NCBI GenBank assembly: GCA_965209225.1
Contig: OZ242379.1
Coordinates: forward strand, 1,741,289-1,805,288
Origin: Thermodesulfobacteriota bacterium
GTDB taxonomy: Bacteria > Desulfobacterota_D > UBA1144 > Nemesobacterales > Nemesobacteraceae
DNA: 64,000 bases
Direction of reading: 5' to 3'
The position numbers and the translations under genes are program-made. This document shows, in pieces, positions 59,707 through 61,685 of this stretch; within the stretch, counting starts at the first letter, position 1, and every line of letters begins with the position of its first letter. The notes beneath the pieces were generated by a model, which searched no databases, was not told the DNA's origin, and saw only the letters and a list, made by a program, of their open reading frames with translations.

Positions 59707-60207
59707 TTAACGATTCCTCCTCAGGTAAGTGGTTCCGAATCCGATGAGTGCTTCAAAATGTGGCAGAAAACCTTCAAGAAAAGCTTTTCTCGGTTCTTCC
59801 GCTGAGACAACTTTCTTTACGTTTTCATCAATGAAATCTTGGAATTCCTTCGGTATCTTGTTTGCCGCCACTGCGTACTGTGCGTGAGCGCAGAGAGATT
59901 CAAAGCTGGCTGATACCTGGAGCCAGCTTTCCCCGTCAGCTTTCAACCGGCGTTCAATTTCTCGGCAGTGATTGAAGAAACGGCGTGCCTGCCCTGTCGT
60001 AAGATTAGGTTTGCAATTGCGGTGCGCAAGCAACTTTGCCAAAAGATCGACTTTTTTCTTTGAAACAAAGTCGGGTTTAAGACAACTTCGGTTTTGATTG
60101 TCAGTTTCGAAGTAAGAAGCCGGAAACTCAGGTGCTTTGCGAGAATGTGGTCCTGATGTCGGAGACTTATAACCCGCTTTTCTCATAGCGTCTTTCATTC
60201 TAGACAT
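59707..60207 (-). CDS. csm2: type III small subunit Cas11 (Csm2-like)
   Basis: All-helical about 166-aa protein (…TTGQARRFFNHCREIERRL…). ATG at 60207 overlaps the cas10 TAA by 1 nt (TAATG). The longer ORF to 60258 is an alternative. Confidence 0.5.
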   Translation of the reverse strand: MSRMKDAMRKAGYKSPTSGPHSRKAPEFPASYFETDNQNRSCLKPDFVSKKKVDLLAKLLAHRNCKPNLTTGQARRFFNHCREIERRLKADGESWLQVSASFESLCAHAQYAVAANKIPKEFQDFIDENVKKVVSAEEPRKAFLEGFLPHFEALIGFGTTYLRRNR

Positions 60208-61685
60208 TATATTTCCTCCCCTGCAGAGCGAGTTGCCAGCAGAGCATAGCGAAGACACGCTGACAACTCGTCAAGCTGCTGTTCATTGTCACTCTCAAGC
60301 TGTTCAATCGCTTTGTTGAGTGCCCAGGAACGAAAATCAGAGTGGTGTTGCTGAACATTGCGCTCTATCTGGTATGCCCAGCGGGCGGTTCGCGGGTTTT
60401 CCCCTGAAGGTTTGCTCTCCACAATACTCAGCAAACGATGCAGCAAAGAACGAGATGCTGTCCCATCCGCTACCCAGGTCGCTAGATTCTTACCATCTTG
60501 TATCAAGGGTTCGTGCCGAGTCCATTCCCAGTCTGATCCCAGCGCTGCACATCTGTTTTTATCTTGATGTGACTTTGCCGACTCCAAAAGTTTTTCCGCC
60601 TCTTCAACCGCGTGATAAATAGGCAATCGATAAGGAACAACAGCAATACCCGCACTGAAAGTCAGTGGGGAATACTTGTGTCCCGGACCTTTTTCAAACT
60701 CTACTGCAAGCGCCCCGGCGAAATCAAGTATCACATTCCATGGACCAACAAGCAGCAGGTCATCTCCTCCGGCATAAAGAGTATAGATTAACTTCCATGA
60801 ACCTCTCAGCAATTCCTGAATTTTCTGTCCGAAGAACTCGTGCAAGCAATGGCTGAAAGACCGAAGCCGCCGATATGAAGAATCTTCCTCTGCTATCTTG
60901 CTGACCCGCGCCCCCATGCTGTCCACATCGGCTTTCATTACGGCCAGACGACGGTCGCCACAGGCTCGCTCCGAGATTTCCTGAAATGTCAGCGGTTCAC
61001 CGGAATCTGAACGGCGCGGTATCCAGCGACCAACGTGAAAAGAACCTGGCATGCAGTTTTCTAAAGGCTCAAACTTGACTCCAAGAGCTTCCACTTTACC
61101 GTTACCCGGACGCATCCACTCCCAGCGCGTAAGCCTTTCTCCAAGCTTTTGGGCTTTCCAGCAATTTCTGCAATACAGAACATTTCCATCTTCATTTTGT
61201 ATGTTCTGCCATCCCGGAGACTGACGGCAAATTTCACAAGGCTTGTCAAGATGTGGCCGACTCCAATTTTCCGTACTCCAATATCCATTTTCTTGCAACA
61301 GGAAAACTCCTGTACGACGCTTCTGAACTTCCAAGAAAGAGCGTGCAACAAGAGGAGTTTTTCCCCAGCTCAACGATACTTGAACTTCCCCAGCGGTCTC
61401 ATCCCACAGCTTGCGCTGTATATCAGAACGAATTTTCTCAAGTTCAACGGAATCGGAGTCATTCGGAATCTGTACCATGAACCCACCGCCACCGTGTATC
61501 AAGACATCTTCTTCAGCGACTTTTAAACGTTCCCGTATAGTCCAGAGCGTTGCGTATTCAAAGAGTTCGAGCAGAAATGATCGTGCTCTCAGTCTCTTTG
61601 CCTGTGCTTTGCCCGTGTTCTTTACACCTAACACATAGCGTTGAATTCCAGAAAAATCACAGGCCAGATACATAAATTTATTCAT
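60207..61685 (-). CDS. cas10: Cas10 (Csm1-like) lacking the N-terminal HD nuclease domain; cyclase GGDD motif intact
   Basis: Begins directly in Palm1 (…MYLACDFSGIQRYV…HGGGGF…). Treble-clef Zn finger (…CEICRQ…CRNCW…). Palm2 …AVMKADVDSMG…YAGGDDLLLVGPW…. Only 492 aa. No HxxxHD motif anywhere. Confidence 0.75.
   Translation of the reverse strand: MNKFMYLACDFSGIQRYVLGVKNTGKAQAKRLRARSFLLELFEYATLWTIRERLKVAEEDVLIHGGGGFMVQIPNDSDSVELEKIRSDIQRKLWDETAGEVQVSLSWGKTPLVARSFLEVQKRRTGVFLLQENGYWSTENWSRPHLDKPCEICRQSPGWQNIQNEDGNVLYCRNCWKAQKLGERLTRWEWMRPGNGKVEALGVKFEPLENCMPGSFHVGRWIPRRSDSGEPLTFQEISERACGDRRLAVMKADVDSMGARVSKIAEEDSSYRRLRSFSHCLHEFFGQKIQELLRGSWKLIYTLYAGGDDLLLVGPWNVILDFAGALAVEFEKGPGHKYSPLTFSAGIAVVPYRLPIYHAVEEAEKLLESAKSHQDKNRCAALGSDWEWTRHEPLIQDGKNLATWVADGTASRSLLHRLLSIVESKPSGENPRTARWAYQIERNVQQHHSDFRSWALNKAIEQLESDNEQQLDELSACLRYALLATRSAGEEI

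Follow-up and report, generated by a model that had tools for sequence, protein, structure and literature searches.

Whether a Cas10 protein of 492 residues can be a natural large subunit of a type III complex, and what kind of complex it would serve, is the question raised by the open reading frame at positions 60207–61685 (minus strand, ATG start) of the 64,000-nt window, the whole stretch of DNA analysed here. The original prediction had described this product as a minimal Cas10 without an HD nuclease domain but with an intact GGDD cyclase palm. The identification held: the NCBIfam Cas10/Csm1 model TIGR02578 matched the product with an E-value of 1.8e-80 (271.6 bits against a cut-off of 170) and was covered up to position 753 of 753, while phmmer against the Csm1 chains of the PDB gave an E-value of 1e-24. 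The AlphaFold2 model was confident (pLDDT 85, pTM 0.84), and the top 50 Foldseek matches in the PDB were all Csm1 chains (best E-value 1.3e-24), with TM-scores of 0.72–0.78 when normalised to the query and about 0.5 when normalised to the target. A look-up of the exact protein sequence in the assembly collection returned no record. Taken together, the product of the open reading frame is most likely a functional Cas10/Csm1 large subunit in which the HD domain is naturally absent, and it is one of a widespread family whose members have about 490 residues.

The alignment and structure modelling that had been proposed as a check were run, and HMMs, solved-structure sequences and the confident model agreed on the domain boundaries, all on the minus strand. 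The N-terminus, MNKFMYLACDFSGIQRYV, already lies within Palm1 (about residues 1–125, 61311–61685), which contains the DFSGIQ motif and an invariant GGGGF at residues 65–69. Residues 3–116 paired with residues 232–342 of Thermococcus onnurineus Csm1, and the Pfam Csm1_B (Palm1) domain was found on residues 28–108. The Cys4 zinc finger CEIC...CRNC (61161–61238) sits between the palm domains, and its four cysteines (C150, C153, C172 and C175) were invariant among 17 aligned family members. Palm2, the cyclase domain (residues 246–380, 60546–60950), matched Pfam PF22335 (Cas10-Cmr2_palm2) over its full length (1–133 of 133, E-value 8.5e-31). It carries KADVDSMG, with D253 and D255, and YAGGDDLLLVG at residues 304–314, whose GGDD (306–309) is encoded by bases 60759–60770; D253, D255, G306, D308 and D309 were invariant among the same 17 members and Y[AS]GGDD was found in 119 of 120 homologues. 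The C-terminal helical domain D4 (residues 388–484, 60234–60524) was defined by helices in the AlphaFold2 model and by the matched end of TIGR02578. It includes the invariant W436, Y438 and R442, and pairs with the 'ARWVYFLTR' region of T. onnurineus Csm1. The start directly in Palm1, the treble-clef zinc finger and the intact cyclase palm were thus as predicted. Two findings had been named as fatal to the prediction, an N-terminus forming a divergent but complete HD domain and a GGDD region that does not align with Palm2; both were checked, and the former aligned with Palm1 instead while the latter did align with Palm2.

The cas10 gene is the first of a cas10-csm2-csm3-csm4-CARF/HEPN operon on the minus strand, whose genes are contiguous or overlapping. 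The csm2/cas11 gene (59707–60207, 166 aa) was identified by TIGR01870 (E-value 5e-10, above the cut-off) and Pfam Csm2_III-A; its ATG overlaps the TAA stop of cas10 (TAATG), with a GGAGG Shine-Dalgarno sequence upstream. It is followed by csm3/cas7 (59028–59705, 225 aa; TIGR02582, E-value 1.4e-45, 155.8 bits against a cut-off of 90), in which the catalytic Asp34 (GGSDNP) is present, as it is across related loci. The csm4/cas5 gene (58105–59049, 314 aa), which shares 22 nt with csm3, was identified by TIGR01903 (E-value 3.6e-20, 72.5 bits, cut-off 55). Cas10, Csm2, Csm3 and Csm4 therefore each scored above the cut-off of the corresponding NCBIfam III-A model. [quoted passage not shown] Searches of the close-family loci with HMMs of Csm3 and of the Csm5-like proteins found in distant relatives detected no second Cas7-like or Csm5-like gene, and neither these loci nor the window contained a stand-alone cas6. 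The loss of Csm5 that had been claimed is accordingly real and extends to the whole family. Several relatives (four loci) carried internally deleted modules, indicating that the module is dispensable or costly.

What the original prediction missed was the context, since the Csm module immediately follows csb2 within a type I-G operon, and this insertion best explains its reduction. The csb2 gene (61708–63204, minus strand, with a probable start at the ATG at 63204) encodes the type I-G Cas5-Cas6 fusion, a pre-crRNA endonuclease (TIGR02165, E-value 4e-82, 277 bits against a cut-off of 45; Pfam Cas_GSU0054), and its stop lies 22 nt before the cas10 ATG. Next to it, the C-terminal 259 codons of csb1/cas7g, the type I-G backbone subunit, occupy 63221–64000 (minus strand); the frame is open to base 64000 and the gene runs off the end of the window. 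This csb1 is 93% identical to that of a related contig (L001), where the full gene follows cas3g-cas8g2, and its homologous cluster matches TIGR02570 (Csb1/Cas7g). The order cas3g - cas8g - csb1 - csb2 - [cas10 csm2 csm3 csm4 CARF] - cas4g/cas1g - cas2 - array was found in 28 of 37 informative related loci. The embedded module spans about ten lineages, including Latescibacterota, Dehalococcoidia, Acidobacteriota, Binatia, Spirochaetia, Opitutales, Rhodothermales and Longimicrobiales. The nine remaining informative loci had no I-G genes within 10 kb, so type I-G is not strictly required for the module. In the literature searched we found no description of a Csm5-less Csm module embedded in a type I-G operon, although an earlier one may exist.

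All eight relatives checked carried a single array of 25–82 repeats, with a 36-nt repeat ending in ATTGAAGC; two of the eight had repeats ending in ATTGAAGA and ATTGAAGG. Tandem Repeats Finder, a direct-repeat search and a search for the repeat core of the relatives revealed no CRISPR array in the window. In L001, a contig with 95% identity, the adaptation genes face away from the operon. The array is therefore presumably located past the end of the window or contig, and we infer crRNA sharing from the relatives only. As the window shows no cas6, adaptation genes or array belonging to the module, which is spliced in after csb2, the module most likely uses I-G crRNAs cut by Csb2.

These observations suggest how the reduced complex may work. 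Cas10, Csm2 (Cas11), Csm3 (Cas7, with its catalytic Asp intact) and Csm4 (Cas5) would form a four-protein type III-A-like complex carrying a crRNA that Csb2 would cut from I-G array transcripts, with an 8-nt 5′ handle that is AUUGAAGC in relatives. Binding of a complementary transcript would switch on the Palm1/Palm2 cyclase pocket, which would convert ATP into a cyclic oligoadenylate, probably cA4, and this would in turn activate the adjacent CARF-HEPN RNase until Csm3 cuts the bound target RNA and turns the signal off. Lacking HD, the complex would have no Cas10 ssDNase activity. One spacer set could thereby serve two effectors: the I-G Cascade with Cas3g would destroy DNA in a PAM-dependent manner, and the reduced Csm complex would signal in response to RNA. 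An HD-less, cyclic oligoadenylate-signalling Csm complex supplied with crRNAs by the I-G Csb2 is the best explanation of the locus as a whole, and we assign it a probability of about 75%. To our knowledge, Csm5 is present in all solved Csm complexes, which counts against a complex without it.

The same gene arrangement invites a bolder reading, namely that the reduced Csm is a hybrid in which Csb2 caps the 3′ hairpin of the crRNA in place of Csm5, or in which Cas3g, which has an HD nuclease, is recruited for DNA cleavage in trans. The position of cas10 directly after csb2 (contiguous or overlapping in four other loci) would fit such a complex, as would the fact that Csb2 stays bound to the 3′ hairpin of the mature crRNA. 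Moreover, csm5 and cas6 are both gone here, yet distant HD-less relatives outside I-G loci, among them the Campylobacterota group, keep a csm5-like and a cas6-like gene. However, the nine loci that carry the same module without I-G genes nearby are hard to reconcile with a hybrid, and in Latescibacterota loci csb2 and cas10 are separated by about 1 kb. In addition, type III systems commonly borrow a Cas6 in trans without incorporating it (PMC12669027). We therefore regard the hybrid as unlikely. The module may be an unclassified III-A derivative that is integral to I-G operons, and the boldest form of this proposal, with Csb2 as a structural 3′ cap replacing Csm5, is equally doubtful. If true, it would be a genuine I-G/III-A chimeric effector, and Cas3g would be the sole DNA nuclease across both systems.

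The signalling output of the preferred four-protein complex is suggested by the gene that follows csm4. It encodes a Csm6/Csx1-like CARF-HEPN effector (56855–58126, minus strand) that matched TIGR02710 (E-value 3.5e-54), the Pfam Csm6 HEPN domain (E-value 2.3e-26) and PADLOC CARF1--CARF_HEPN (E-value 1.9e-69), and carries the HEPN motif RNGSLLAH (Rx6H). Judging from the two protein sequences, its start is likely the ATG at 58108, which overlaps the stop of csm4 as ATGA. A CARF gene likewise followed csm4 in related loci whose module was intact and whose downstream sequence was available (10 spot-checked, 2 exceptions). The partner belonged to TIGR02710, TIGR02619 or TIGR02221, indicating that it had been swapped while its position was kept. 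A signalling-only Cas10 that feeds the adjacent CARF-HEPN protein fits both this arrangement and the invariant catalytic motifs; it is a supported reading and the standard one for such an architecture. Cyclic oligoadenylate synthesis and the ring size are likewise predicted from the motifs and the CARF partner. It is improbable that the palm domains make another signal, such as SAM-AMP, or have a mainly regulatory role instead of triggering an immune effector. A Cas10 with an intact GGDD can indeed produce SAM-AMP (PMC10600005), but the CARF-HEPN partner encoded here is of the Csm6/Csx1 type, relatives with other partners use CARF proteins as well, and no CorA, NrN or SAM-lyase genes, which mark SAM-AMP systems (PMC12669027), are present. 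Downstream of the CARF-HEPN gene lie an AbiL-like ATPase/DUF3226 pair and an SNF2 gene. These accompany the module only in the window and in L001, so we set them aside as parts of the system and treated them as neighbouring defence genes.

The absence of the HD domain proved to be genuine. Scanning of the whole protein revealed no HD dipeptide and no H..HD motif, in agreement with the claim that no HxxxHD motif occurs anywhere, and HMM scans of the operon genes and their neighbours found no separately encoded HD domain; the sole HD domain in this type of locus is that of Cas3g. In a Pyrinomonas homologue, residues 3–524 paired with positions 230–753 of the 753-position TIGR02578 model, so the missing part corresponds to the first 229 positions, which are taken to be the HD domain and its linker. 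The 22 nt between csb2 and cas10 leave no room for an unannotated N-terminal domain, and this gap, together with homologue lengths, ruled out a hidden extension of cas10. At least 120 Cas10 homologue clusters, down to 49% identity, were nearly all of 480–520 aa, began at the same DFSGIQ motif and kept the catalytic motifs, and a more distant Campylobacterota group (25–28% identity) had a Cas10 of about 505 aa, likewise without HD. Although broken modules do occur in relatives (cas10 fragments fused beside csm4 or csm6 remnants in the four internally deleted loci, and frameshifts in three others), the idea that cas10 is 5′-truncated, decaying or an assembly artefact, with the HD loss an accident of one genome, is hardly credible and already essentially refuted by conservation, as it conflicts with the uniform clusters, the csb2 stop just upstream, the translational coupling of cas10 and csm2 and the HD-less Campylobacterota group.

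A genuine loss of HD is, on the other hand, ordinary. In a survey of 1113 type III loci, Cas10 had an HD domain in 39% overall and in 65% of III-A loci, and 61% overall were without it (PMC11229360). Of the original description as an unusually reduced Csm, the family-wide loss of csm5 therefore stands, while the missing HD domain is not unusual. An HD-less Cas10 with a working cyclase is on its own routine and adds nothing to the field. As HD loss is common among type III systems, the four-gene Csm module embedded in I-G operons is the more notable point. The survey left out Cas10 proteins shorter than 500 residues (PMC11229360), so a family of about 490 residues may be under-described. The value of the locus lies in the wider pattern, in which a very compact type III sensor of four proteins, with a single Cas7 species and a Cas10 of about 490 aa, is conserved within I-G operons. 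It would offer a clean natural case of two effector classes drawing on a single array, a single Cas6-type enzyme and a single adaptation module. It also raises the question of how a Csm complex without Csm5 is capped and sized, and it could provide a small scaffold for RNA-detection tools based on cyclic oligoadenylate signalling.

Compared with canonical III-A Csm systems (S. thermophilus, T. onnurineus, L. lactis, E. italicus and S. epidermidis; PDB 6IFN, 6MUR, 9ASH and 9G9A), the module shares the Cas10–Csm4 models and the Cas10 fold, including GGDD, the zinc finger and D4, as well as the Csm3 catalytic Asp and a downstream Csm6/Csx1-type CARF-HEPN gene. It differs in that the first ~230 Csm1 residues (HD), csm5 and cas6 are missing, that the Palm1–Palm2 region is about 40 residues shorter and that it is embedded in a type I-G operon; the window contains neither adaptation genes nor an array belonging to it. 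Membership of III-A2, which has no Cas11, was ruled out on defining features because csm2/cas11 is present. Type III-F is also a reduced type III subtype with a single Cas7 gene. Type III-H resembles the module in having a single gene each for Cas10, Cas5 and Cas7 plus a small subunit, often without an array and adaptation genes (PMC12669027), but its catalytic make-up is the opposite. [quoted passage not shown] The 'miniature Cas10' mCpol of Panoptes is also a small Cas10 polymerase/cyclase homologue and signals with cyclic nucleotides, but mCpol is a di-adenylate cyclase that stands alone and has a 2TM-beta toxin as its partner (PMC12657230). The protein studied here combines two palm domains with a zinc finger and D4 and is co-encoded with Csm2–4 and CARF-HEPN, so that it does not belong to this group.

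The III-B Cmr system of Vibrio metoecus with NucC (PMC8682760) and the III-B system of Bacteroides fragilis with CorA (PMC10600005) likewise have an HD-less Cas10, whose cyclase is active there, as the intact motifs would suggest here, and their immunity depends on the nucleotide-activated ancillary effector. These are six-subunit Cmr systems with several Cas7 paralogues, located outside I-G loci, and their effectors respond to cA3 (NucC) and SAM-AMP (CorA) in place of the CARF-HEPN protein. Regarding crRNA supply, the III-B systems of H. ochraceum, whose complex was reconstituted with csb2 as its Cas6 (bioRxiv 10.1101/2023.06.23.546230), and of M. mediterranea, which uses I-F crRNAs (PMC5576922), have no cas6 of their own and rely on type I-processed crRNAs, as we propose here. 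In both organisms, the combination of type I and type III provides redundant DNA and RNA targeting (bioRxiv 10.1101/2023.06.23.546230; PMC5576922). Their III-B loci are separate or adjacent and encode full subunit sets, whereas the module described here is a reduced III-A-like one within the I-G operon and, unlike those loci, its insertion between the I-G effector and adaptation genes is conserved across phyla.

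The cas10/csm1 gene occupies positions 60207-61685 of the minus strand and encodes 492 amino acids, exactly as in the original prediction, which had described a minimal Cas10 that starts directly in the first palm domain (Palm1), carries a zinc finger and an intact GGDD palm, and lacks an HD nuclease domain. The protein scored 271.6 bits (E 1.8e-80) against the NCBIfam model of type III-A Cas10/Csm1 (TIGR02578, cut-off 170 bits). Pfam matched Csm1 domain B, which corresponds to Palm1, at residues 28-108 and the Cas10/Cmr2 second palm domain (Palm2) in full at residues 246-380 (E 8.5e-31). 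When aligned to PDB sequences, residues 3-116 corresponded to 232-342 of Thermococcus onnurineus Csm1 and residues 218-442 to 487-728, pairing YAGGDDLLLVG with YSGGDDVFVVG and ARWAYQIER with ARWVYFLTR. Neither an HD dipeptide nor an H..HD motif was found in the protein, and the missing N-terminal region cannot hide in a mis-called start, since the upstream gene stops 22 nt short of the cas10 ATG. An AlphaFold2 model built with 17 family members was confident (mean pLDDT 85, pTM 0.84), and a Foldseek search of the PDB with it gave Csm1 chains of type III-A complexes as all 50 top matches (E down to 1.3e-24). The TM-scores were 0.72-0.78 when normalised by the query but about 0.5 when normalised by the target, the pattern expected if this Cas10 is a Csm1 minus its N-terminal third. 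Each of these predicted features was thus recovered.

A word-indexed protein search returned 851 relatives, of which the best 120 homologue clusters ranged from 95% to 49% identity; nearly all were 480-520 aa long and 119/120 carried Y[AS]GGDD. Alignment of 17 members revealed invariant DxSGIQ and GGGGF in Palm1, zinc-finger cysteines (C150, C153, C172 and C175), Palm2 metal ligands (D253 and D255 in KADVDxMG), GGDD residues (G306, D308 and D309) and residues W436, Y438 and R442 of the C-terminal helical domain D4. This family-wide length and motif conservation ruled out a truncated gene. In the homologue of the cultured acidobacterium Pyrinomonas methylaliphatogenes, residues 3-524 matched the 753-position Csm1 model from position 230 to position 753; this protein therefore lacks exactly the first 229 model positions, interpreted here as the HD domain with its linker. 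The window Cas10 starts at the equivalent point in the alignment to PDB Csm1. The gene adds one more member to the known class of HD-less Cas10 proteins.

Downstream, and also on the minus strand, csm2 (59707-60207), csm3 (59028-59705) and csm4 (58105-59049) all scored above curated HMM cut-offs. The csm2 ATG overlaps the cas10 stop codon as TAATG and is preceded by a GGAGG Shine-Dalgarno sequence, while Csm3 retains its catalytic aspartate (GGSD34NP), conserved across the family. The following gene (56855-58126, minus) belongs to the TIGR02710 family, above the curated cut-off, and was classified by PADLOC as CARF1--CARF_HEPN. Directly upstream of cas10 lies csb2, the type I-G Cas5-Cas6 fusion (TIGR02165, E 4e-82), alongside csb1/cas7g, of which only the 3′ part falls within the window. 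Neither csm5 nor a stand-alone cas6 was found within the window, in agreement with the predicted loss of Csm5.

The 3′ end of the CARF-HEPN gene is overlapped by 8 nt by an AAA_15/AAA_21 ATPase gene (55108-56862, minus; PADLOC matches PDC-M38A, E 1e-82, and AbiLi, E 7e-51), followed by a DUF3226 protein (PDC-M38B). The pair is a candidate two-gene defence system, apparently co-transcribed with the Csm operon, and occurs with the module in just two places, the window and L001, the closest related locus. Directly downstream, in the same orientation, is a gene for a 1112-aa SNF2-family helicase (51520-54858, minus) with Cys/His in its N-terminal region and best PADLOC matches to DpdE (E 1e-179) and ZorD. 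With these genes and a 427-aa protein (41467-42750, plus) that matches the PADLOC candidate system PDC-S20 (E 6e-117) and, more weakly, PifA and QatA, the right-hand end of the window has the look of a defence island. Two perfect direct copies of a 33-nt repeat, 42 nt apart (47871-47945), fall inside a 592-aa ORF without a family match; the neighbouring 539-aa ORF contains RTX-type calcium-binding repeats, and both resemble genes for repeat proteins with no link to CRISPR.

Scanning one genome for each species gave 47 loci. L001, at 95% identity, came from a Spirochaetia MAG, and others from Latescibacterota, Dehalococcoidia, Binatia, Opitutales, Rhodothermales, Longimicrobiales, Gemmatimonadota and Acidobacteriota (Terriglobia, Vicinamibacterales, Bryobacterales and Pyrinomonas). 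Maps drawn from tblastn, ORF clustering and HMM annotation showed a recurrent order, cas3g - cas8g1 or cas8g2 - csb1 - csb2 - module - cas4g/cas1g - cas2 - CRISPR array, where the module reads cas10 - csm2 - csm3 - csm4 - CARF gene. I-G genes lay within 10 kb of the module in 28/40 places (28/37 without three very short contigs). The module was present in all three I-G gene-order variants seen, which argues for a repeated or ancient coupling and against a single chance insertion. Each of eight loci checked had a single array of 25-82 repeats with spacers of about 36-37 nt; the repeats are 36 nt and form a hairpin, and their terminal bases are ATTGAAGC, replaced in two of the eight loci by ATTGAAGA and ATTGAAGG. 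In intact-module loci with downstream sequence, the gene after csm4 was of a CARF family (TIGR02710, TIGR02619 or TIGR02221; 10 loci spot-checked, L030 and L034 being exceptions or unannotated). The sensor/effector is thus swapped among loci while its position is kept, as would be expected of loci that conserve cyclic oligoadenylate (cOA) signalling as their output.

Searches of the close-family loci with HMMs of Csm3, Csm4 and a Csm5-like protein turned up no second Cas7-group gene, except for a Csm3 duplicate in L025 and, in L047, an unrelated full-size type III module just upstream of a decayed copy. The more distant Campylobacterota HD-less group (25-28% identity, about 505 aa) retains cas6-like and csm5-like genes, lying upstream and downstream respectively, both HMM matches being below curated cut-offs. 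HD loss therefore appears older than the loss of csm5 and cas6, which appears to accompany location inside an I-G locus.

Several loci depart from the common map. In one Dehalococcoidia locus (L025:11204-14260), three csm2-like segments lie in tandem and csm3 is present as two paralogues, the second without the catalytic Asp; duplication may have re-expanded the reduced complex here. L032, L038, L046 and L047 (around position 10000) hold decayed copies of the module, in which the first 30-200 cas10 codons run straight into the 3′ portion of either csm4 or the CARF-HEPN gene, with I-G genes and array intact; these recurrent internal deletions suggest that the reduced Csm is dispensable or costly. 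In Latescibacterota and Rhodothermales (L003, L004, L005, L006 and L020, about 8900-10000), csb2 and cas10 are separated by about 0.8-1.4 kb containing only short, poorly supported ORFs, while they abut in other lineages. In L001, the genes next to cas3g (196-3716, minus) are cas2, cas4g/cas1g and a second csb2, a divergent paralogue of 573 aa (TIGR02165, E 4e-31); all of them point away from the operon that runs from cas3g to cas10. The L001 genome therefore has two Csb2 proteins, as the window's genome probably does, with the second beyond base 64000.

The Cas10 has both palm domains and every cyclase motif, lacks an HD domain and is encoded together with Cas11, a catalytically competent Cas7 and Cas5; the compact operon also includes a CARF-HEPN gene, and the Cas6-type enzyme Csb2 is encoded just upstream. 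We propose that Cas10, Csm2, Csm3 and Csm4 would assemble on crRNA cut by Csb2 from the I-G array, and that a complementary transcript would switch on the cyclase. The product, probably cA4 because the partner is a CARF1 of Csm6/Csx1 type, would activate the HEPN RNase; the signal would end once Csm3 had cleaved the target, and DNA destruction would fall to the I-G Cascade and Cas3g. Cas6 supplied in trans is thought typical for most type III systems (PMC12669027), a type III-B complex has been reconstituted in E. coli with csb2 as processing enzyme (bioRxiv 10.1101/2023.06.23.546230), and in Marinomonas a type III system has been shown to back up a type I system via shared crRNAs (PMC5576922). 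Without Csm5, the simplest answer is that a terminal Csm3 would cap the crRNA 3′ end. Csb2 is retained on the 3′ hairpin after cutting the crRNA (bioRxiv 10.1101/2022.08.08.503147); the most novel answer, that Csb2 itself is the cap, seems improbable.

The original prediction of an unusually reduced complex overstated the rarity of HD loss, its interpretation being otherwise supported. Lack of HD is ordinary: in a survey of 1113 type III loci, an HD domain was recognisable in only 39% of the Cas10 proteins (65% in III-A, 3% in III-D) and the cyclase was present in 92% (PMC11229360). The same survey left out Cas10 proteins under 500 residues (PMC11229360), and the short family would thus be dropped. 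Our literature search, incomplete in coverage, found no description of a Csm module that lacks Csm5 and sits inside I-G operons. Assignment to III-A2 was rejected, as III-A2 lacks Cas11 whereas this module has it. The Cas10 itself would not surprise a specialist; what is worth a look is the conserved composite locus, four genes without Csm5 or Cas6 kept inside I-G operons, and its missing 3′ cap. The stand-alone mini-cyclase mCpol/Panoptes is not comparable to this Cas10. Characterised examples of HD-less systems that only signal come from Vibrio metoecus and Bacteroides fragilis.
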